Below are positions 5,508 to 59,850 of a stretch of DNA of 64,000 nt, one piece after another (position 1 is the first letter of the stretch; every line of letters begins with the position of its first letter). The position numbers and the translations under genes are program-made. This DNA is from Eledone cirrhosa. Its lineage: Eukaryota. The stretch spans positions 75,082,001-75,146,000 of the forward strand of contig OZ024740.1 of assembly GCA_964016885.1 (NCBI GenBank). The letters run 5' to 3'. A model generated the notes under the pieces. That model was not told where the DNA came from and made no database searches. It worked only from the letters and a program-made list of their open reading frames with translations.

Positions 5508-6686
5508 CTATCCGTTAGGGTATAATGTGGGGCTGTAATACAGGAAAGTTTTATGCAATTTGTGTTTACAAGCCGAAAATGCCTCAGATTTTTTGTTTAA
5601 GATGTGGTCATTAGCGTAGAGTATTTCCAGGGCTTCAGCGACGCAAAGATCGCATGGTCTTTTATTTCCGTTATACGATCTAGCTCTAGCTAGGATCTTC
5701 CAGTGTGACCTATATTGGGTGTGGTTGTCTTTTAGACTCCAGATACAAGCTGAAAGTGACGTCATATTCCGTTTTAAAGAGTTAAGAAAAGAATGGGTGT
5801 GCATGTAAAGACGCTGCTTGATTCTATTGGCAGTTAACCCTATGTAGGCCCTACGGGACGTGGGTGTTTCGACCTTACATTTGTAGACAATGTTACTGGA
5901 GAGGCATTTCCCGGATAGAGAACAGTCAACCCCATTCCTACAATTATATTTAGTACTAGCTACAGGATCGCACGTGTTCCTATGGCTAGGTAATTTAGCT
6001 AAAATTGAAGCAGCGATGTTATGTGCAAGGTTAGGAGTCGTAGAGTAAGATATTTTAATGGTATTTCTATTAAAAATGTTATTATATTTATATGCTGAGG
6101 CGAAATGCTTCTTAATAAGGGAGAGAAAGATCTTAGCTAATGGTGTGGTCATCTCAATATTATATGGTGGGTTATACCATATAGTGCGTCGGGATCTATT
6201 TTTCCTTGGTCTATGCTCATACTTAGTATATGCTACCTTATCGACAAATCCACTCGGAGCGAGAGCTTCATTGTAATATGTGGAATGGTCAGTGAAAATA
6301 TGCTCGTTTGTAGATAGACGGGAAAACCTCAAAGAAACGTTACTTACCAGGTTCTTGATTATGCTGGCAGGATGGTTAGAATGCTTACTTATGTAATCAA
6401 GCGTATCGTTCAGCTTTCTATACGGGTAGTGCAAGCCATTCGACAAATTGAGGGTAACGTCGAGGTAATTAACGACCGAGAGGTTTGCCTCAACCTGTAT
6501 GGTTAAAGAAGGCTATGAGTTCTTTTCTGAACCTGTCGCAAGCGCGTGGACAGCACTTTGTCATGGTCAAAAGCCCGCCATCGCGGTACAAACCATCGCC
6601 CATATTGGGGAATTCTTCCTTGATAGAGAAAAGAAGGAAAAGGCCAATAAGATCTGTAACCTCCGCCGAATCGCTGGCGCCCTTTC
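5508..6686 (-). pseudogene. PLE polyprotein remnant: RT C-terminal part, Cys-rich linker and GIY-YIG endonuclease (frameshifted)
   Basis: Upstream frame reads SDSAEVTDLIGLFLL..GLYRDGGL (decayed YxDD). It is followed by VNYLDVTLNL, HSNHPASIIKN, WYNPPY, NCRNGVDCSLSGKCL, NIVYKC..AYIGLT..RLYMH and CDLCVAEALEI. Confidence 0.9.
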
Positions 6687-6945: not shown

Positions 6946-7290
6946 TCCCCTTCTCACTTCCTCCCGTTTGGCTAGTAGTGGGTTCTCTTCTTGCTCACAT
7001 CTCACTCACGTCGGACGGTCTGTATCTTGATCGCTCATGAAATCCACCCAGCTTATGCTGACCGGACAACCATGTTGCTTGTTTATTTTCCTATCTTTGG
7101 TTTGCTTTTATCCTTCTATGTTGTTTACTTGTCCCCCTCGCTTTACGCGATTTACTGGTCCCAATAACCTTTTTTAGTTATTGCTCGCACCAACCTGAGG
7201 TATATGATTTTTAATGCGATGAAATATCAATGATGGTTGGCTAATTTTATCATATGTAACCCATGTGCAACCACGCAGTATTCTTCTTTC
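6946..7290 (+). mobile_element. Diverged, internally deleted copy of the 10419-11356 permuted-hammerhead family
   Basis: Shares gctcacat, tcgcaccaacctgaggtatatg..gcgatgaaat..ggttgg and atatgtaacccat.tgcaac..cgcag with 10419-10729. It ends in (TA)n. Confidence 0.7.
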
Positions 7291-8008: not shown

Positions 8009-8694
8009 TATACCACTTGATAGCGTGTGGCTTCTCTCATACGCTGTGAACCTGGGCGGACTGGCAGTACCGTTGGTAGGGGTCAAAACTGCCAAAGCCC
8101 ACCGCAACGGCCGATGACCCTGGAGTTCTGTGTCCTTCGTTTGTATCTTTACCTTTAAAAAATAATTTTTAAAAGTTTCCTCTTAAAAAATTATATTTCG
8201 TTGCCTTGTCCTCTCTTAGTTAATTTTCTTAAGTTTATCAACACTATGTGACGAATGTATTATCTCTTCTCCCCCCATTTATTGCAATGGATTACACATT
8301 TTAACACGATATATTACTTTTTTCTTGTTGCTTTTTTCTTCTTTTCTTTTTTTTTCATTCATGACTCTCGTGCTATAAGAGGCACCACACTTTTTCCTTG
8401 ATTTCACATAAAATTCTATGTCTACTTGTTGCTTAATTGCTATAAATCAATGTTTTATCTCTCTTCTCTTACTCCACTGGACAGTGTTTGGCTCGTGTCA
8501 GACGCTGTGGCCCCATACAGACTGGCTGTACCGCTGGTAGGGATCAAATGCCAAAGTACACATCAATCACCGACGACCGTGGAATTCTGTGTCCTTCGTT
8601 TATATTTGCATTTTCAAAAAATAGCTTTTTAAGGTTTCTCCTTAAAAAATTGTTTTTCGTTCGTTGCCTTGTTCTCTCTTTGTTAATTTTTGAA

Positions 8695-10418: not shown

Positions 10419-11350
10419 TTGCTCACATTTCAACCAGGTCTGATGGTCTTTATTCTCTAGTTCACGATTTTATCGAGTTTATATTCATAGAAATCTGGGA
10501 CTTGTCTCTTTCCTCTCACTTTCTGTTGCTTAAACCATTTTGTTTGTTCACCCTAACGTTCTCTTTATTTACGTGTCCCAACGACTTTTTTTAGCCGTTG
10601 TTCGCACCAACCTGAGGTATATGGCCCTTAAAGCGATGAAATGCCTGGGACGGTTGGAGGGTCACTGATGAAGGATTCACTTTTTTATATGTAACCCATT
10701 TGCAACGCCGCAGCTCCATTATTATCATATTTACACATATTTTTTCCTCTGCTGCCACCCGTCTGTTTCTCTCTTTGTATCTTTACCCTTTCTAGCAGTC
10801 TCTCTCTCTGTTAGCCTCTTCCTCAACTTTCACTCACTCATACCCTGTCACTACCTCTCCTCCACTCCTCTTTCTTCCTGCTTGACCTGTCCGATTTCTT
10901 TTCTCGCGCACTCTTGGCCAAGCCGGTATGAATTTTTTTTCTCTCTCTCTCTCGTCTGCGTCTTCACAGAACTTATGTTTACCGAATTCGCAGACCAGAC
11001 CCCTTCTTCTTCTTCCTCCCGTTAGACCTGTGCGAAATTCCTTCCTTGCTCACATTTCAACCAGGTCTGATGGTCTTTATTCTCTAGTTCACGATTTTAT
11101 CGAGTTTATATTCATAGAAATCTGGGACTTATCTCTTTCCTCTCACTTTCTGTTGCTTAAACCATTTTGTTTGTTCACCCTAACGTTCTCTTTATTTACG
11201 TGTCCCAACGACTTTTTTTAGCCGTTGTTCGCACCAACCTGAGGTATATGGCCCTTAAAGCGATGAAATGCCTGGGACGGTTGGAGGGTCACTGATGAAG
11301 GATTCACTTTTTTATATGTAACCCATTTGCAACGCCGCAGCTCCATTATT

Positions 11351-31299: not shown

Positions 31300-32165
31300 G
31301 AGGTGTGTCAGAAAAGTTCCAGGATTGATGTCACAAAAGATTTATTTCAAACCCAAGCTTCACACTAAGAGTTTTCTCCTTCAAAGTAATCCCCCTGGAG
31401 TCTAATGCACTTTTCCATCCTTTTCTGTCACGCTTGTATGCACTCCTGGAAGGATTCTTCCAGGATCCCCCGCAGTTCCATCGTCACGGCCTTTTTTATG
31501 TCGTCCACGTCTTCAAAACGGGTCTCCTCCGGGTCGTACACGAAGATCCATGACTCATCACCGGTGATGGCTGTCCCTAGCAAGTCTGGTTCGGTTTCAA
31601 GACGTTCGAGGATGTCCTGGCACACTTGCATGCGTTGACCCTTCTGGTCATCGTTCAGCAGTTTTGGCAACACCTTCGCGCAGACTTTCCCCATGGGCAA
31701 ATCTTCAGTGAGAATCTTCCAGACGCTATCCCGATTCATGCCCAGCTCATTTGCCATCAGTCGATCAGTCAGCCGACAATCGCTACGCACCATCTGCCTG
31801 ACGCGCTCAACGTTGACCTCAGTCCTGGTTGTTGAGGGTCTTCCGCTCCTCAAAAACACGTGAGCGTGACATCGTCTCATCTCCATACACTTGCTGCAGC
31901 AATGCCAGTGCTTCTGACGGAATTTTCCACAACCGTACCAGAAACTTCAAGTTTGTTCGTTGCTCTGTGCTCATGGCTTGACGACCTGAAACAGAGGACA
32001 TGTATATAAAATTATGAAGAAAAAAGTTTGATCGCTTCAGAGAGCTAAGATTACAGCTACATACTCCAGGGGGATTACTTTGAAGGAGAAAACTCTTAGT
32101 GTGAAGTTTGGGTTTGAAATAAATCTTTTGTGACATCAGTCCTGGAACTTTTCTGACACACCTCG
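31299..32165 (-). mobile_element. Mariner element with internal deletions, about 100-bp TIRs, TA target
   Basis: TIR cgaggtgtgtcagaaaagttccagga...ccctggagt at both ends. Transposase remnants read MSTEQRTNLKFLVRL, RSGRPST, AKVLPKLL (WVPHEL equivalent) and ITGDESWIFVYDPE, then jump directly to RFEDVDDIKK..CIRLQGDYFEG. Confidence 0.93.
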
Positions 32166-32211
32166 TATATATATATATGTACTCACACAGACACACATAC
32201 ACACATACGCG

Positions 32212-32251
<40 letters not shown>

Positions 32252-32291
32252 AATGGAAGTATGTTTAGAAAGCGCAGAGCGAAGTTTGAAA

Positions 32292-32627
32292 ATTGAAATA
32301 GAAATATAATTGTTCTACTTTTGGCACAAGGCCAGCAATTACCAATTACTGGTACTGATAGAAATATAATGCTTTGCTATAACATTTGAATAAATAAAAC
32401 AGTCTTAATAACGGGGCGTATAAACCCATTGAACGAAATAAAGATGGTATCAGCTTACATGGGAGTCGAACCCACTAGTGTGCTCATCGGGCAAACGAGA
32501 AATGTGGGTTCGACTCCCATGTGTGCTGATATCTATCTTGTTCCGTTCAGTGGGTTTATACGCCCCGTTATTAAGACTATGTTATTTAGTTAAATGTTAC
32601 GATGAAGCATTATATTTATATTTCAAT
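32292..32627. mobile_element. Fold-back element with tRNA-like core; left arm interrupted by a 47-bp SINE tail with 13-bp TSD
   Basis: Arms at about 32358-32476 and 32503-32627 are reverse complements, with gtgggttcgactcccat (T-arm/B box) at the inner ends. The TSD atagaaatataat lies at 32298-32310 and 32358-32370. Confidence 0.7.
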
Positions 32628-33157: not shown

Positions 33158-33254
33158 TCTGTATGTATGTAAAAGGTAAACAGAAATAAGAACACAATCG
33201 GTACAGTATACGGAAGGAATATATTAGGTTAATACCTGAAAGAGCAGGAAGAGG

Positions 33255-33295
33255 GTCGTAACGTTTCGGACGCTAGTCCTTCATCAGAAGAAAGA
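33255..33295 (-). ncRNA. Minimal hammerhead-like motif (stem I decayed)
   Basis: Minus strand reads CTGATGA-aggac tagc gtcc-GAAA-CGTTA (palindromic AACGTT helix III). Confidence 0.5.
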
Positions 33296-33795: not shown

Positions 33796-34343
<548 letters not shown>

Positions 34344-34452: not shown

Positions 34453-34937
34453 GTTCGTTGTCTTCTCTTTGTTAATTTTTCTAATTTTATTATCATTACT
34501 CTGTGACGAACGTGTTCTTTCTTCCCCCCACCCAATAATTTTAATGGTTTACATTTTTTAACATAACATCTAACTTTTTTCTTTTTCCTTTTTTTTTCTT
34601 TCCCTTCCTTTTTTCATTTTTTACCTCGTTTTTTTTTTTGTCACTCTCATGAGAATATCGTTGCTATAAAAATCACAATACCTTCTCCTAACCGTCACAT
34701 AAAATTCTGTGTTATTGCTGTAAGTTATTGTTTGTCTCATCTTTTACTCTACGGACAGTGCTTTGGTAGTGTCAGACGCTGTGACCCTGGATGGACCAGC
34801 AGCACCGACGGTAGGGGTCGAAGCAAGGTTCCTCTCGCCGTCCGAAGATATTTCAGTTCTGTGTCCTTCATCTGAAGATTTTTGGCTTTTGTATTAAAAA
34901 ATTTAAGGTTTCCCCTTTAAAAGAAATTTTCGTTCTG
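34453..34937 (+). mobile_element. Copy of the 8003-8696 family (permuted hammerhead-like motif 34745-34855, decayed)
   Basis: Collinear similarity to 8200-8695 across ~480 bp. Confidence 0.75.
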
Positions 34938-39891: not shown

Positions 39892-40310
39892 CCACACACA
39901 CACACATCCACCCTCCCTCTCTCCTTGTCACACACGCACACACACATATATATATATGATATGATATACAATTATTACCCACGCGGTTGACATTTCCCAT
40001 ATTATTGACGTGCAGTCTCCACTCTGAGTCATGAGTTTTGTATATTCTTACGTACACATTTTATGTCTCACTGAATGAGTAAGGGGAACGGGTGAGGTTG
40101 CAGGATAACTTTGTAAACTAAAACGATTTCCACTCCCAGTGGTGTTTGATTGTAAGGTGACCGTTTATTTTTAAATTTAATTTAGTTCGATTTATATAAA
40201 CTATATAATATTTATATATATATATATATATATAATAGGAATGAAAAAATGGCGGGCTGTGTTGTTGCAAATGTGATATACAAATTAAAATGAGAATTAG
40301 AAATGGAAGT

Positions 40311-40439
40311 CAGGACTAATCCATCATCAGTGGTCTACTAGCCATCATAGGTATTTCTTCGCATTAAAGACCATTTCGATACCTCAGGCTAGCGCGATAC
40401 CTATGATGGCTAATAGACCACTGATGATGGATAGTCCTG
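40311..40439 (-). ncRNA. Small fold-back containing a permuted hammerhead related to 10573-10680
   Basis: Minus strand reads ctagcc-tg-aggtat-cgaaa-tggtct-ttaa-tgcgaa-GAAA-tacct-atgat-ggctag-t-agacca-CTGATGA. Arms 40311-40354 and 40397-40439 are inverted repeats. Confidence 0.7.
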
Positions 40440-40504
<65 letters not shown>

Positions 40505-47791: not shown

Positions 47792-49202
<1,411 letters not shown>

Positions 49203-49336
49203 CTCATATTTTATAAATTCACTATATCATATATTTATATATATAAAGTTATGAAACGAAAGGAGCTCTGTAGTTACTAAAAACAAGGTTTAGGATGGTG
49301 GTTAGGACGGAACAGGAGGACAAAGGAAGAAAGGAG

Positions 49337-49453
49337 TTTCCATCGTCAGCTGTAAATGTTTCCCGAACCGATGTTTCGGCGCTGAATTACAGTACATCGG
49401 TGTAGTTCGGGTGCGCCCGAGGCCTTTTATTAGTGAAAAGGCCAGGTGGAAAA
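49337..49453 (-). ncRNA. Permuted hammerhead candidate, third sequence family, within a ~750-bp purine-rich element (about 49245-49990)
   Basis: Minus strand reads ggcgc-a-cccgaac-taca-ccgatgt-A-ctgtaa-ttca-gcgcc-GAAA-catcgg-ttcggg-aaacat-ttacag-CTGACGA-tggaaa. Confidence 0.7.
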
Positions 49454-50242
49454 GGAGAGAGAAAAAAGAAGAGAGAAAAGGAAAGAGAGGGAAAGGAGGA
49501 AGAACAAGGGGGGGGGGGGGATGAGGAGAGAGGAAGAAGGGGAAAAAATAGGAAAGGAATAGAAGAAAAAAAGTGTACAGGTTCCATCGTGGGAAGACAC
49601 AGGTGAAAGAAACATGCAAAAAAGTAACCATGGAAAAATAGGGAAAGTAATTTTTGGCCAACCTGGGAGACTTTAGCCTGGTGGTCAGCTACGACTCAGA
49701 GCTGGTATAATCGTGCTGCCTCTCACATAGACAGGAAAAAGTGAGAGAGAGACACGGGCAACCAAAAGTGAGGAGAAGGGAAAGGGAGATAATCCAGAAG
49801 ATTTTTTTTACGACGGTGGTAAAAACGTGCTGCAAAGATTGCGGACAGAGAGGCCACCACGGCACGTGTAAACATGTCAACAATCAAAACCGAACGGATG
49901 GATAGAGAGAGAGAGGAAGAGAGAAAAAAAAAGAGAGTGAGGAGGAGAAGGGAAGAGAGAAGGGAGGGTCGATGCGAAAGTATGGAGGGAACACAGATCG
50001 ACCAAAGCAGTAATCAATAATAAAATAAAGTGGTCACGTGTTTAATAACGTCACAGCAGTGATTATCACGCCTGACCTCTTAATAATTCGTAGTATCAAA
50101 ATGGTGACAAAAGGATAGATAAATAAATATATAAATATGTAGACAGGTAGGTAAGTAGGAAGGTAGGATAAGAGCTAGTTAGAAAGAGATCGATATGCAG
50201 CTAGATAAATAGATAGGTAGGTAGGCGGGAAGATAGATATGT

Positions 50243-50313
<71 letters not shown>

Positions 50314-51557
50314 TGTTTCATAGATAGATAGATATCCTTGCATTACATGTTTCGGCTCTCTGGGATGGGCTAGTTACCAGATCTAGTTACCCCAAAAAAC
50401 ACGCCATATGTCATGATAGCACCCATCTGACTTTATTGAGTGCCCGAAGAAAGAAGAAAGAAAGAAAGGAATGAAATAGACAGATTGATATTGCTTATTA
50501 CATAATATGAAATTTTACACTTTATGTTTACGATAATATTAAATCAAATTTCAATGTTATCGTAATATGAAGACGTTGATGACTAAGAGATATTAACGGA
50601 GGAGTGTACACATTAGTCCATTCTTTTTTTTTTATTTTCAAGGTCTTTAATGACTTGGCAACAGTGATAAACGAATGACGTTATTGAGGTTATTGCGGTT
50701 AATAATCAGGCTGATTTCGTTAAAGGAAACTCTGAATATAAGGTGGGCAGGACAATGTTTTTGATTTTAATAGGGAATAATAGTCGGTGTGTTTTTTTTT
50801 ATCGTTTAACCAGGGCCTGCGGAACTAGTACGAAGGAGGGTGTTATCTTCAAAACGGAGACATGGCTTCAGAGTCGGTGCTGCCATTAGGACAGCTCAGC
50901 AGCCGACTAGTGTGCACAACTCAGGTAAACTTAAAGGGCCACATTTGTATAATTAACTTAAATATATGATAATTCTTTGCGATGAATAAATAAATCACGA
51001 AACATCTTTGTCGCGTAGAAGTGAACATATCTTAAGGGTGGTATAGTTTTTTGAGCTAAAATATGATTTAGCGTGAATATGGACTGTGAAGTAAAAAATG
51101 CAAGTTTAATAATGTTCTTAGTGTGGACAGAGTAAGGTTTGTTAACAACTAGGTTTTTCATCTTGCAATAATAGGGCGCACGTTATAGGGTTAACCTAGG
51201 GTGCTAAATACCAAGGCGTCGCCCCTGTCTCACCTAAATGTTTACAATGGTGTAGTTTTGTTAAAAGAACCTAAGGATCAGGTGTTGTTGTAAAGCAGAT
51301 GACGGATTAATGGTGCTCTTCATGCAAGCTACCGAGGAATTTATACTCAGAGACAAAGAGCCAGAACAAATACTGCAAAGCATTTCGTCCGATGCTTTAA
51401 AAATTCTTCTAATGCACCTCTTTAAACTGGTGCTATATTTTATAAATTCCAAAAGGATGAAAGATGTTGGCCTCGCATGGTGCCGGAACAAATATCCCAA
51501 GACATTTTGTACCAGGTTCTATTCAATATCTTTTAACACGATATACGAGGTTTGGGC

Positions 51558-51655
<98 letters not shown>

Positions 51656-51656
51656 A

Positions 51657-52582
51657 TCGAATGTGCTCAGGCGCTCACTGTCCTCTGGCAAACGGACCCG
51701 GTGATCAGTGGAGACTCCACTTCGACATTCTATAGAGGGTTGGTCCGCAGCAAGTGCGACGACGCGCTCGGAGAAACTCTAGGCGTAGAGGAGGACGAAC
51801 TGGCCAGTCTGTTCGGTAAGACCTTCCGCCCGGGACCAATGGACAACTTCCAAAAGTCCCTGGCCTGGCGGTGCTACCGAGGAGCTCTACCAGTTCGAGA
51901 CAAGCTCTACAGACACGGGCGCCCGGGTAGGGACCCTTCGAAAAAGATCTGTTCGAGATGCGTGCGCGACGAGGAAACCGTCGCACACGCATTTGTACAC
52001 TGCCCGGGCGTTACCGACCTGTGGGGCTATGTAGAACGACTATTGTCGCGGGTGGGACCAATCCAGTTGACCATCGAGTCCATTGTCATGATCAAACCGC
52101 CACCTCCTTCAAAAACGAGGGAGAGGCGGTTTTCCTATGTGTTATGGCTGTGGTGAAAGAGGTTATATGGTGGACGAGGTTAAAAGGGCTGAGGTCAGAC
52201 ACTTTTCTCTCCGGCGCGCAACTGATTCGTTTTTTAAAATATCATTTTGGAAGAAGAATCAGGATGGAGAGAGAGGTACTGTACCCCAGCAAATTTTATA
52301 AAAGGTGGGTGAATGTGGCAAGAATGGCCCGAGTGGTTGAGCCTTCTCTCTATATAAGCCTGTAGGTTGAAGAAAAAGAGGAAGAGAGGAAGGGAGTACT
52401 CACTCTTGGTGCTCCTGGAGAGGAGGGTTGTACATTTTTTCGGGGTGTGTACAACCCCTGTGTAACACCTCCCCACTATTGGGGATTTCAATTGTTATTT
52501 GTTGTGTTATTAATAGTTTTATTTTCATATACCTGTATGTAAACTCCCCTTCTTTTGTGCCCTTGTGGCTAATAAAGAAATG
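51657..52582 (+). mobile_element. 5'-truncated Tx1/L1-clade LINE in (TATC)n
   Basis: Homologous to 56704-57688, with zinc-finger CSRCVRDEETVAHAFVHC and a 3' aataaa. (TCTA)n lies on both sides. Confidence 0.9.
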
Positions 52583-52609
52583 TATCTATCTATCTATCTA
52601 TCTATCTAG

Positions 52610-52652
<43 letters not shown>

Positions 52653-54073
52653 ACTGCAAGGAAAACCCTCGAGTAACTGCCAGTAGATATAAGCAAAGCT
52701 AAGGAGCTACTTGCAGATGCCAAAAAATACGTAGTGTACGGGGAAAATGGATCATTTTCGATCCACTCTTCCCCGGAACTAAAAAGCCAGAAACTCCTAA
52801 ACACTGTCATGTTTAGGACAGTCTCAGACAAAACCAAAAAACCAGCTCAACCATCACAGAGTGAGATAGAGCTGGTTTTAAAAGATGTCATGAAAGACAT
52901 CATATTCATCTACGGGAGTCTATCCATTCTCATGAAGGACAGGGACACGGCAGCGAAACTGTCAATAAAACCAATCACATCCACCGCATACACCTTCTAC
53001 CCTACGTACATGAGTAGAAGGACACAAAACATAAAAATTCACACCATCCTTCCGATTATGGACATATAGTGGGTATTGACAGGTTTCCTGGACCTAGACG
53101 ACGACACATTAATATCCATGGGAAAGGCATCGGGTGACGCGTTCAGTGGAACGGGCCTCGAACTTTTAGTTCAAATGAGGCCCGAAAGGATCGCCCAGAT
53201 CCCTTCACTGAACGCGTCATACAGGATGACCAAACTTTTATTAACATTACCGTTGATGGTAGGCGGCCCTCGTGTTACCTCTGTGGAGCCAGAGGTCACC
53301 TGAGGGCTGTCTGTCCTCAACTTAAAAAGAAAACCCCAATCCTGCCTACACCACCAACAACTGCACAACCAACACAATCACCACAACCACCACTACAAAA
53401 CCAACAACCACAGCTCAAACCCAAACAAAACACTGTCCCCCCCCCACACACACTAAAAAAAAACAATTTCCAAAACACCCGGACCGCAAACACAACCCGA
53501 AAATCTACCTCTTCCTTCCAACACGGAAGATGACCCTCGTTCGTCGACAGACGAGGAGGAGCACTTCCACACAATCAAAAGAAAGAAAAGAAAACACACC
53601 TCAGACACACAAATAAAAACAACCAAAATATAACACAGACACCAACACAAAAGAGCACACAATAGCAAACAAAAAACACCACACAAAAACAAAAACATGC
53701 ATACATAAACACAAGAAATAAAAAACTGCTAAACATTGTATACAACAACAATTTAGTGAAAACCCAAGGGCCTAACTTCACCCAGGTAGGGGATTTCCCC
53801 CACCTCAAAATGATTAAGGCCCCAGAGGACACATATAAAACGCTAAAAAACAACTTTAAAGAGGACGTGGGTCCTCCCTGCGTCGGGCCCATTAACCGCG
53901 TCCTCCTAAAAAATTCCCCCACCTCCTCCCCATACACCCACACAACTCCAAACACCCCAACCACACAACACACTGATGCCCCTACACTTCCAAAAACCAC
54001 CACCCCACCCAACAACCCATCCCCCACCCTCATGGAAATTGTGCAGCCCGATATCCGGGACGCAGAGAGGTAA
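52653..54073 (+). pseudogene. Tx1-type ORF1 (gag-like) remnant
   Basis: Zinc knuckle CYLCGARGHLRAVC at about 53270-53315, followed by a P/T/K-rich low-complexity tail. Several stops and frameshifts. Confidence 0.75.
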
Positions 54074-54097
54074 GTGCCTTTTCTCTTCACCACCAAC

Positions 54098-57000
54098 ATG
54101 GCTATGCTGAGAGTACGTTGTCTAAATGCGCGTGGCCTGGGCTCAACTTGGAAGCAAGCAATGCTTCTAAATGACCTCAGGGCACAAGGTATAGATGTTA
54201 TGGTTATTTGCGAGGCCCGGATCAGCAACGTGCGACGGCTGGCCCCCACCTTTGGAATGCACGCATCGCTCTGTCAGCCCAGAGGTGGGAGTGGGGTTGT
54301 CGTTCTGCTGCAAAAACATCTGGGTCTCGCAATACAGACGTTACATTTGGACCCGGAGGGTCGACTAGTGGTTCTGGACCTTGGCAGTGGTAAAGGCGGA
54401 GCGTTTAGGTTGGTAGCCGTCTACGGCCCTTTCGGGTCAATGCGGCCGGACTTCTTCCATCGTCTGGAGACTTCTCTAGGGACGTCCCGCTCCTTGCTAT
54501 TAGTGGGGGACTGGAATGGTATCCTAGATGGACGTTGGGACTACGTAGGGGCCTGTCCCGATAGAGAGGGGTGTAACAGCCTCGAAGGGTTAATCGGCCG
54601 ATTTGACATGGCCAATGGATATCGACTAGATTTTCCGACTGCGCCAACCTGGACTTGGGCAAATCGTAGCGGATCATCTAGGTCGTACCTAGATAGGTTC
54701 TTAGTTAGAAATAAGGATTAGGACTTTTTAAGTTGTCCAGAAATGCTCATGGTTGGCTATTCAGACCACAAGTTAGTGACCTGCATGGTCAACCTTGACA
54801 GAACGCATAGACAGGGACCCGGTTACTGGAAGCTCAACTTGTCCTTACCGGCAAGTAAGGCTTACAAGTACCGGATTAGCACTTTATTTAAGGAGCGGTC
54901 GTCAACAGCAGGTGGTGGTGATCTCTCAAAAGAGAGATTAGAGTAGTCTCTATAGAATTTAGTAAGGAGTTAGCCTCAAATAGAAATAGGAAGGAAAAGG
55001 AGTTGGTAGATAGTGTAGAAGAGGCAATTAGAAGCGGCGACGTGGCCAGAGTGCTAGCGTCGAGAACGGCCCTGAGCCAGTTCTTCGACGCGAAACACGA
55101 AGGCTGCATCGTCCGAAGCAAAATACGTGCTCTGGGAAACAAGGGAACCAAAGCTGTTAGCTGGCCCGCGTGACAGAAGCCAAAAGAGGGAGTAGATCCA
55201 CTATCCGGTCTTTGCGAGGCCAGGATGGACGGGTGATCCTTGAACCTAAGCAGATGTGCGAGGCTTTTCAAAAGCACTTTGCGAGATTGTTCGGAAGTCC
55301 TGCGAGGAGCCGATTTCAGCCGCTGAGATAGAGAACGTGCTGAGCCAATGCGGCAAATGCAAATCCCCGGGTCTCGATGGTCTTCCATACGAACTATATC
55401 TAGCTATGCCGGACTTGTTCCCCGATCTCCTCGAGGCAGTCTACTGCAACTGGCAACAGAACGGGAGAATTCCCTGTGCTGTGACCAAGGGCGTAGTCAC
55501 GCTACTGAGGAAGGACGAGAACAAGGGGGACGATATAAGTAATTTCAGGCCCATAACTCTGCTAAATACAGAGTTACAGATTTTAGCCAAGGTGCTAGCA
55601 AAGAGGTTGGCGCTTGTCGAGGGCAACCTGGTGGGCAACCAGGTCCAACCTGGTGGACAACCTCCACCTCATGCGATACATCATAGAGAGGGTTAGGAAC
55701 GAACCCGGCTTTGGTGGGGCCCTGATCAACTTGGATCAATCTAAGGCGTTCGATAGGGTCGACCATGGTTACCTGGATGCGGTGCTAGCGGCGGCAGGCT
55801 TCGGACCCGTTTTCAGGAGCTGGATCACTGCCAAGCACAGCAGCCGCATCTGCTCTAGAGTCAAGGTGAACGGCTACTTCTCGGAGCCGTTCGAAATCGC
55901 GCGGTCCATCCGACAAGGGGGCCCTCTCTCCCCCCTTCTGTATGTAATGACTCTAGATCCACTGCTGCGGAAGTTGGAGTTGTTGCAGGGCATCCCGTTA
56001 GAACCGGGATTGCGGAAAGCGGTGTCGGCCTACGCCGATGACGTAACAGTAATTGTGTCGACGGCCTAGGAAATCGGGGCGATCGGCACCTTACTGGAAG
56101 AGTACCCAAGGTTTACAGGGGCTAAGCTGAACCGGGACAAGTCGATCGGTTTGCAACTCGGCACGTGGAGGGGAAAATCGATGCCCTCCGATGGCGTCGT
56201 CGGGCGTTGGACAGAGGGCCCGGTGAAGTTGCTCGGGGTCTGGTTCGGACTAGACCTCCAGGTGGAGAAGAACTGGAGTGAGGTAACGAAGCAGGGTGTT
56301 TGCACTGACCCAGAAGTGGGCCGCGTGCAAACTGTCCCTGAAAGGTCGGGCTGAGGTGGCGAACACTTATATAGCGTCCGTCATCTACTACCGCCTGACC
56401 GTCGTGCCTTGCCCAAGGGAAACGCTCGCGAAAATGGAGCGCGCACTCTTCCAATTCCTTTGGAAGAAGCGGGCTCCTATGGTGAGGAGATCCATCTGCT
56501 GTCAACACCCTTCGAAAGGAGGGCTGGGGATGCCGTGGCTGATGATGCGTAAACACACATTAAGGCTATGGCACCTCCAGGTATTCCTCACCGGTCAACC
56601 GGTGTGGGCCTCGTTTGTGAGGCGAGCCTTTCCCAGACTCGTCTCGCTCACCGAGCTGCAATCCTGGGTCAAGCAAAGACCGAGAAAACTGGGCGCCTGG
56701 AACACCGAGTGTACCCAGGCGCTCGCGGCTCTCTGGCAGGCGGACCCAGCTGTCAGTGGAGACTCCACCGCAACATTCTATAGAGGGCTGGTACGCAGAA
56801 GGTGCGACGACGCCCTCGGAGAAGCCCTAGGCATGGAGGAAAACGAATTGGCCAACCTGTTCGGTAGGACATTCAGCCCGGGACCTATGGATAACTTCCA
56901 GAGGTCCCTGGCAGTGTTACCGAGGGGCTCTGCCCGTTCGAGAAAGGCTCTACAGACACGGGCGCCCTGGTAGGGATCCCTCGAAAAAGATCTGTCCCAG

Positions 57001-57409
57001 ATGCGTGTGCGACGAGGAAACTGTTGCACACGCATTGGTACACTGCTCGGGCATTGCCGAGCTGTGGGGCTATGTCGAACGACTGCTGTCACGGGTGGGA
57101 CCAATCCGGTTGACCACCGAGTCTATTGTAACGACCAAGCCGCCTCCCCTCTTCAAAAACGAAGGTGAGGCGGTGTTTCTGTGCGTAATAGCCATGGTGA
57201 AAGAGGTTGTATGGAGGACGCGTCTGAAAGGACTGAGGTCAGACACCTTTCTCTCTGGCCAACAATTGGTCCGTTTCTTCCGATATCATTTCGGAAGAAG
57301 GATCAGGATGGAGAGAGAGGTGCTGCACCCCAGCCGTTTTTATGAAAGATGGGTGAAAGTGGCGAGAATGGTCCGTGTGAATGGGCCTTCACTCTACACC
57401 AGACTGTAG
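54098..57409 (+). pseudogene. Tx1-type ORF2: APE endonuclease, reverse transcriptase and C-terminal zinc finger (disrupted)
   Basis: Motifs CLNARGL, VGDWN, SYLDRF, SDH, WKLN, KSPGLDGLPYE, NFRPITLLN, LDQSKAFDRVDH, RQGGPLSPLLY, AYADDVT, KLLGV, GGLG and CDEETVAHALVHC. Confidence 0.93.
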
Positions 57410-57726
57410 GTGAGAAAGATGAAAGATCAAGGGAGAACATTCTCTCTGTGCTCCTGAGGAGAAGGGTTGCACACTTTTTTCGGGGCTGTGTGCGACCCCC
57501 CAAGGCGCCTCCTCCTTATTGAGGATTTTGTTTTTCAATTTATTTTTGTTATATTTTATATTTTTATATTTTTATATTTTGTTATTGCCTCCTCCTTATT
57601 GAGGACGCCTTTTTATGTAAACTCTCCTCGCATTGTACTTATCCCACGTCCCATTCTTTGATGCCCTGGTGGCAAATAAAAAGAAAGTTATCTATCTATC
57701 TATCTAGCTATCTAGCTAGCTAGCTA

Positions 57727-59539: not shown

Positions 59540-59850
59540 TTAAGAAAATTTACAAAACAAGGCAAAACGAAGCAAAACAAGGCAAAACGAAAAACAATTT
59601 TTAAAGGGGATATCTTAAAAAATATTAAAAAAAAAAAAAAATACGAACGAAAGACACAAAACATCAGAGTCAACGGCCATTGAGATGGACTCTGGCAGCG
59701 TCGACTCCTACCAACAGTCCTGCTGGCCCACCAGGGGTTACAGCGTTTGATACAAGTCAAAACGCGCCGTCCAATGGAGTAAGAGACGAGGGACAAAACA
59801 TTAATTTATAGCAATTAAGCTATAACAAGTACACATAGAATTTTATGTCA
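59540..59850 (-). mobile_element. Copy of the 8003-8696 family (permuted motif 59665-59780)
   Basis: Minus strand reads gcagg-a-ctgttg-gta-ggagtc-gacg-ctgcca-gagtccatct-caatgg-CCGTTGA. Confidence 0.75.

Follow-up and report, generated by a model that had tools for sequence, protein, structure and literature searches.

A hammerhead ribozyme with a split block C is predicted on the minus strand of Eledone cirrhosa contig OZ024740.1, within a stretch of 64,000 nucleotides (positions 75,082,001 to 75,146,000, hereafter the window) that is part of a 3.0-Gb assembly. In the best explanation of the data, to which we assign a probability of roughly 0.7, a conserved hammerhead core in S-G-C order, supplied with its stem II strand from upstream and stabilised by six helices that are themselves conserved, is likely to self-cleave as a single molecule, 3' of position 49393 (H17). 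The motif, which sits in a retrozyme-like element, adds a new topology to the hammerheads, and its cleavage is a prediction.

Layout of the predicted ribozyme

The initial annotation had placed a permuted hammerhead at 49337..49453 on the minus strand, and the covariation among related lineages described below bears out this layout; all six helices that it had named are found in place, with every pair Watson-Crick. The predicted ribozyme (49337..49452, minus strand, as are all the parts that follow) reads X, hairpin, stem II (10.x strand), I-II helix, III'-UH-I, II(11.x)-GAAA-III, I-II helix, I'-CUGACGA and X'. The closing helix X pairs 49452-49447 with 49342-49337 and covaries in relatives, and its 3' strand (49337..49342) directly follows A9. 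The hairpin between X and stem II has 8 bp (49443-49436/49428-49421; whole 49421..49443) and shows two-sided change in 6 of 7 pairs in relatives. Stem II (49417-49413/49382-49378) takes its 10.x strand (49413..49417) from upstream and not from after CUGAnGA. The I-II helix (49411-49406/49367-49362), which corresponds to the "I" helix of type SGC and also covaries in relatives, is separated from stem II by a single base and from stem III by a 5-nt bulge (49401..49405), which occupies the place of the kink-turn (k-turn) found in most lineages.

Stem III (49400-49394/49374-49368) has U16.1 at 49394, and its 16.x strand together with H17 covers 49393..49400. Stem I (49392-49387/49355-49350; 1.x strand 49387..49392) is linked to stem II by 4 nt, and its 2.x strand, which precedes CUGACGA (49349-49343; together 49343..49355), is linked to the 3' strand of the I-II helix by 6 nt. 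Block G (49368..49382) comprises the 11.x strand of stem II, GAAA from 49377 and the 15.x strand of stem III. The core letters CUGAnGA, GAAA and NUH are all present, and stems I and III flank the site with the A15.1-U16.1 pair included. In this copy the 10.1-11.1 pair next to GAAA would be G-C via the upstream strand, a pair that varies among relatives (see below). Cleavage is predicted 3' of A49393, the H17 of this copy; the site proposed earlier at 49393 is supported by the covariation.

A descriptor of the layout scores 83 for this copy versus at best 49 among 40 shuffled windows; because the descriptor was built around this very layout, covariation across families is the stronger test. No Rfam hammerhead model matches the locus at E<=1, as expected from the permuted order, and the Rfam scan of the rest of the window returns only microsatellite-driven microRNA matches and weak HH9 matches.

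Covariation among related lineages

The alignment was drawn from 50 rows with equal G-to-C spacing, of which 26 were kept by eye for being intact; 17 rows truncated or inverted upstream and 7 out of register were dropped. The 26 lineages share one genome and common ancestry, and they exclude both the family of the 49337-49453 copy and a family with a CCGAUGA core, which have other spacings. In an unguided mutual-information analysis of 2,775 column pairs, in which cluster majorities stood for 9 of the rows, the top three pairs are predicted ones, from stem I, the I-II helix and stem III, and the stem II pair 10.2-11.2 ranks 13th. Several unpredicted column pairs also rank high, as is expected because the rows are kin.

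When the alignment is made of 26 real copies, pairing is retained in 92.4% of 853 cells, and two-sided change is seen for 25 of the 33 predicted pairs. None of 500 shuffled controls reaches either the pairing or the covariation score, and slid controls pair at 29-49%. Pairing is high in every helix (X 83%, hairpin 92%, stem II 90%, I-II helix 94%, stem III 96%, stem I 96%), with two-sided change in 5 of the 6 pairs of the I-II helix, and the pair 10.2-11.2 occurs as UA in 15 lineages, AU in 7, GC in 3 and UG in 1. At least 33 switches from one Watson-Crick pair to another (stem I 11, stem II 3, stem III 3, I-II helix 16) are counted on a tree that was built from the same alignment columns. Two positions outside the search pattern are also constrained: 25 of 26 lineages keep U16.1, and at H17 every lineage has either A or C and none has G. 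From these alignments, the six-helix structure is almost certainly conserved.

A predicted bend between stem III and the I-II helix

In the 26 lineages, the sequence that connects stem III with the I-II helix reads as a k-turn. In every one of them, a 3-nt bulge is followed by a G·A pair at 1b·1n; the 2b·2n pair is A·G in 15, A·U in 10 and A·A in 1, and the third bulge position is U in 18. These lineages fit the standard and the Kt-23-like definitions given by Huang and Lilley (2016, PMC5061560), the A·U pair being as in Kt-23. As described there, k-turns bend a helix to an included angle of 50 degrees and bind proteins of the L7Ae family. The family of the 49337-49453 copy is not of this kind, in that its 5-nt bulge lies on the other strand and is accompanied by the 6-nt linker, and in its closer relatives the G·A pairs have become Watson-Crick around a 3-nt bulge. 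The conserved need seems to be the bend and not the k-turn itself.

Eckert et al. (2023, PMC10085705) found it hard to reconcile a stem III that joins the I-II helix directly with the crystal structure, and a sharp kink is a suggested answer to this question, which that paper leaves open. The terms "k-turn" and "kink" are absent from the text of its supplement, and no k-turn in a hammerhead stem III is reported in the literature searched, which was that outside subscription journals. A reading as a box C/D snoRNA, suggested by a likeness of the motif, was rejected: terminal boxes are lacking, and the family of the 49337-49453 copy does not carry the motif.

In the proposed fold, stems I and II and the I-II helix would form a second junction, and the k-turn, or the 5-nt bulge in the family of the 49337-49453 copy, would bend the I-II helix back such that the ring closes. 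The closed ring may replace the usual contact between loop I and loop II, and the break beside A9 would be held together by X and the hairpin. After cleavage, four helices would still connect the two products, an arrangement that could promote their ligation to circles.

Covariation does not show whether the paired strands belong to one molecule or to two, and the same helices could form between two molecules or tandem copies, like the minimal hammerheads of Penelope-like elements, which a review reports to need dimers (PMC6765202). The copies often stand in tandem, and by a rough geometric estimate the stem III of 7-8 bp and the short I-II helix in the family of the 49337-49453 copy perhaps do not easily allow ring closure if no k-turn is present. 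However, stem III (5-8 bp) is not palindromic, X and the hairpin are local and stable (ensemble probability 0.64-1.0 in the 49337-49453 copy), and the k-turn sequence in the 26 lineages is the element required for a U-turn inside a single molecule. Because this sequence would let one molecule fold in most lineages, the evidence does not call for dimer formation, and pairing between molecules is unlikely. Cleavage as a monomer is reasonably likely and is the reading retained below.

The 49337-49453 copy is atypical

The initial annotation had regarded this copy as the cleanest one for experiments, a description that does not hold in light of a private C17A change, a competing local hairpin and the lack of a k-turn. 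The family majority at H17 is C: among 31 family copies, 29 have C, one has T, and A is found only here. In a later set of copies, the site triplet is GUC in 52 of 58, and the GUA of the 49337-49453 copy is a private change from it. The pseudoknot-free minimum-energy fold (-34.3 kcal/mol) includes a 5-bp hairpin at 49407..49420 that hides the upstream strands of stem II and the I-II helix, and the nested subset of X, hairpin, I-II helix and stem III reaches -29.0, with stems I and II left uncounted. The folding program has no pseudoknot scoring, such that the ensemble probabilities of stem II (0.0), the I-II helix (0.05) and stem III (0.27) are pseudoknot-free values only. For initial constructs, a copy with GUC and one from a k-turn lineage are preferable to the 49337-49453 copy.

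Prospects for catalysis

Self-cleavage is likely. RNAs with the same core order, those of type SGC, cleave in vitro at 0.007-0.19 per minute according to Eckert et al. (PMC10085705), and the NUH rule, which was not part of the search, holds in 25 of 26 lineages. Several observations count against catalysis and would suit a hammerhead-derived fold that has lost cleavage and acts instead as a signal for binding or priming, directed at a reverse transcriptase or a host k-turn protein, the k-turn being a known protein site (PMC5061560). The 10.1-11.1 pair is unstable: the partner of 11.1 can be the upstream base in 8 of the 26 lineages, the base after A9 in 14, and either of them in 17. A large insert is present at A9, and one old family has the core CCGAUGA. 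Additionally, the 5' ends of 155 copies, found without regard to the upstream part, show no peak at the cleavage site, with 4 ends within 1 nt of it and 8 at -10 to -8; 114 of these copies reach at least 75 nt upstream of GAAA. However, functional natural hammerheads with a single pair in stem II, or with U4C, have been reported (Perreault et al., PMC3088659), which together with the unsearched NUH rule makes a loss of cleavage improbable.

Split block C and comparison with type SGC

Eckert et al. (PMC10085705) divided the hammerhead into the blocks C, G and S, listed six orders of them and took the blocks as uninterruptible; their published search pattern closes stem II directly after CUGAnGA. 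The present layout is none of these six permutations because block C is split. The Eledone motif shares with type SGC (HRIMA-1), as that paper describes it, the block order S-G-C, a short linker between stems I and II (typically 3 nt there and 4 here), a helix that joins the free sides of stems I and II, and an I-II helix that can come directly after stem III. One extra base after CUGAnGA is likewise found in the SGC-1 construct listed in the oligonucleotide table of that paper. In type SGC, however, the strands of stem II and of the I-II helix follow CUGAnGA, whereas here they lie upstream of block S; as a result of this move, none of the three linkers is left open, and the chain instead enters and exits at A9 via X and the hairpin. 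Type SGC is described there from metatranscriptomes only, whereas the Eledone motif is chromosomal, with approximately 20,000 matches.

The blocks thus run S, G, C, with block C interrupted, and the stem II strand, which in a hammerhead begins 0-2 nt after CUGAnGA, is supplied from upstream. In all 23 lineages scored (of 39 planned), the strand after CUGAnGA pairs over only 0-2 bp with the 11.x strand. An ordinary type SGC, with a stem II of 1-2 bp right after CUGAnGA that the upstream strand merely reinforces, would draw on the 14 of 26 lineages in which the base after A9 can pair with 11.1 and on a GG after A9 that could pair with CC. The same G bases covary with the upstream strand of X, though, positions 11.2-11.5 covary or pair with the upstream strand, and the family of the 49337-49453 copy has a U after A9, opposite C11.1; this account is accordingly very improbable. 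The Eledone motif would work like type SGC yet is not a member of it.

The assumption of Eckert et al. that CUGAnGA and its stem II strand are inseparable is broken by this motif, and published descriptors and Rfam models would miss the whole class in animal genomes because the two are separated. In the literature searched, again that outside subscription journals, neither a split block C nor a non-circular hammerhead permutation in an animal repeat is reported, and "type-SGC" appears only in the original paper. A 2026 paper (PMC13725137) speaks of variants with additional helices and cites three references, among them Eckert et al. and Forgia et al. (PMC10162972); the available text of the latter shows no such layout. 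A fuller proposal is speculative and, taken as a whole, rather doubtful: a seventh topology beyond the six block permutations, a closed ring with stem III folded back by a k-turn and an entry helix inserted at A9. A host protein of the L7Ae/Snu13 type would bind the k-turn and so switch the activity, and the ribozyme would serve to process circular RNA from an animal retroelement present in about 20,000 copies. No ribozyme permuted in a non-circular way would have been known before it from the chromosomes of a eukaryote.

A superfamily with the same layout

A core pattern of blocks G and C gives 20,045 matches in the genome versus 77 for the reversed control; among the first 30 of these loci, 2 (L247 and L248) are unrelated, and many matches are 5'-truncated. 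When the letters of the site and of the k-turn are also required, 11,161 matches remain versus 0 for the control. The family of the 49337-49453 copy is a member of this superfamily of about 20,000 pattern matches, which by its sequences has the same predicted layout. Clustering of 197 distinct copies yields 83 clusters, many of them single decayed copies. The superfamily offers dozens of natural variants of a compact, multiply pseudoknotted predicted catalyst for structural work.

The window itself contains several other copies with the same layout. Two members of a k-turn lineage stand in tandem on the plus strand with a period of 627 (10560..10689 and 11187..11316); the second is identical to the first over the 146 bases compared, and the pair (starts 10555 and 11182) has a minority variant in common. 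An older family with the CCGAUGA core is represented by a decayed copy at 8014..8131 (plus strand) and a more decayed tandem copy at 8472-8590. In this family (L061-L090), the majority core is CCGAUGA (U4C with U7), the hairpin has 10 bp and stem II 6 bp, and a 2x4 loop replaces the k-turn. Further decayed copies lie at 7131-7245 (plus), 34762-34870 (plus) and 59656-59761 (minus).

A viral collection contains no match to a pattern tuned to the k-turn group of the Eledone genome, and 114 matches in a metagenome collection include none (0/114) with stems I and III; because the pattern is tuned to the group found here, these null results say little on other organisms. The absence of both stems from the metagenome matches, the compensatory switches on the tree and the retention of the layout by families of unalike sequence leave a negligible probability that chance complementarity was amplified by the copying of one repeat, the common ancestry of all lineages in one genome and the choice of intact rows by eye notwithstanding.

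Two side observations concern the copies of the superfamily. At 40306-40443 of the window, two broken copies of a k-turn lineage are fused back to back inside the ribozyme, and similar fusions are present at L238, L253, L290 and L434. Additionally, distant lineages at L415 and at 10960-11050 of the window have short motifs of 12, 10 and 9 nt in common outside the ribozyme, which are possible transcription or reverse-transcription signals.

The host repeat

The 49337-49453 copy lies in a host repeat at 49223..50010 (minus strand), which represents about one full unit of approximately 800 bp; it is non-coding and pyrimidine-rich, and its end adjoins (TA)n. Units of this repeat are 5'-truncated and partly tandem, with tandem copies recurring at roughly 775-820 bp, and no coding frame is present in the unit except low-complexity ones. 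A genome search with the 131-base motif gave 804 first-look candidates, of which 40 were scored, yielding at least 42 matches, and the 3' half has exact matches at 214 places. A tested set of 7 stretches contains no A or B box for RNA polymerase III.

The ends of the insertions were determined at 29 loci picked because the motif is complete in them. Relative to H17, insertions begin 96-617 nt upstream (5' ends) and stop 69-241 nt downstream (3' ends); an inverted piece abuts at 11 of the loci and a direct piece at 7. At the 3' end, (TA)4+ is found in 24 of 29 loci versus a background of 12.7%, a proportion inflated by the AT-rich tail of the unit itself. Nine exact copies of the 3' half lie on one strand at G000:C3:89389756-90268187 with a spacing of roughly 140-160 kb, which suggests a large segmental array. 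A 5.2-kb spacing of copies represents a segmental duplication.

Likeness to retrozymes and possible route of spread

The repeat resembles the non-LTR retrozymes of animals (Cervera and de la Pena 2020, PMC7229834; Li et al., bioRxiv 10.64898/2026.07.22.740005). As these sources describe them, those elements are also non-coding, dispersed and tandem, with one hammerhead core per unit and low G+C, and with Penelope-like elements in the same genome; the Eledone unit falls within their reported 51-972 bp. They are defined by a type I hammerhead, however, which the Eledone motif is not, and the type I descriptors used for them cannot match its layout; retrozyme-like elements need not use type I hammerheads. 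Circular RNA has been demonstrated for non-LTR retrozymes and is a prediction for the Eledone repeat. One study (Li et al., bioRxiv 10.64898/2026.07.22.740005) observed no cleavage for 8 of 9 dimers of frog retrozymes.

With the pLTR of Penelope-like elements the Eledone repeat has in common its partial tandems, its inverted pieces on the 5' side and its ends beside (TA)n, as observed for the ORF-bearing elements in the Eledone DNA. Unlike that pLTR, which has a minimal type I hammerhead, the Eledone repeat has no ORF, and its stem III is long and not palindromic. The ORF-bearing Penelope-like elements in the Eledone DNA examined have canonical type I hammerheads or none. Among 63 Penelope-type endonuclease ends, some of them counted twice, a canonical type I hammerhead lies downstream of 15 and the Eledone layout downstream of none; the same DNA, approximately 1.7 Mb of the 3.0 Gb, contains no ORF-bearing partner element. 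ORFs that adjoin copies at L109, L058, L073, L247 and L270 were rejected as autonomous partners and represent separate insertions, with (TA)n between the repeat and the ORF or with a type I hammerhead of their own.

The Penelope-like identity of the ORF pieces is based on reverse transcriptase (RT) and GIY-YIG motifs read by eye, and a Pfam search with five of them returned no family. A near-complete but frameshifted ORF at L109:4210-7862 (minus strand) carries RT and GIY-YIG motifs by this reading; a type I hammerhead lies about 250 nt downstream, and relatives are present at L270, L213 and L416. A Penelope-like RT end with GIY-YIG is also found at 5508-6512 of the window (minus strand). By a rule-based test, none of 39 related ends has a canonical hammerhead, and four of the 39 share a CUGAnGA motif about 230 nt downstream.

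Because the insertions extend well past H17 and most of them include both sides of it, a linear monomer produced by cleavage cannot have been the template, which must be circular or uncleaved; the data favour neither of these, and the identical tandem copies at 10555 and 11182 fit either. By analogy with non-LTR retrozymes, tandem transcripts would be cut to unit length and circularised, and a Penelope-type enzyme acting in trans could begin reverse transcription at an AU-rich point inside the unit. Such a route would produce the fixed 3' ends at (TA)n, the variable 5' ends, the inversions and the partial tandems; on this analogy, the chances of the circular/Penelope route are about even.

Other features of the window

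At 47939-49140, a repeat of 316 bp is present in both tandem and inverted orientation and contains a minimal type I hammerhead that has decayed; the weak Rfam HH9 matches are at 48029, 48345, 48624 and 48940, as well as at 34018. A minimal type I hammerhead of the Penelope kind, with a palindromic stem III, is located at 33240-33295 (minus strand). Fragments of a mariner-like transposase, broken and recognised by eye, lie at 31428-32376 (minus strand). Additionally, broken LINE-type ORFs extend over 51500-57450 (plus strand), in which endonuclease, RT and zinc-finger motifs can be recognised by eye.
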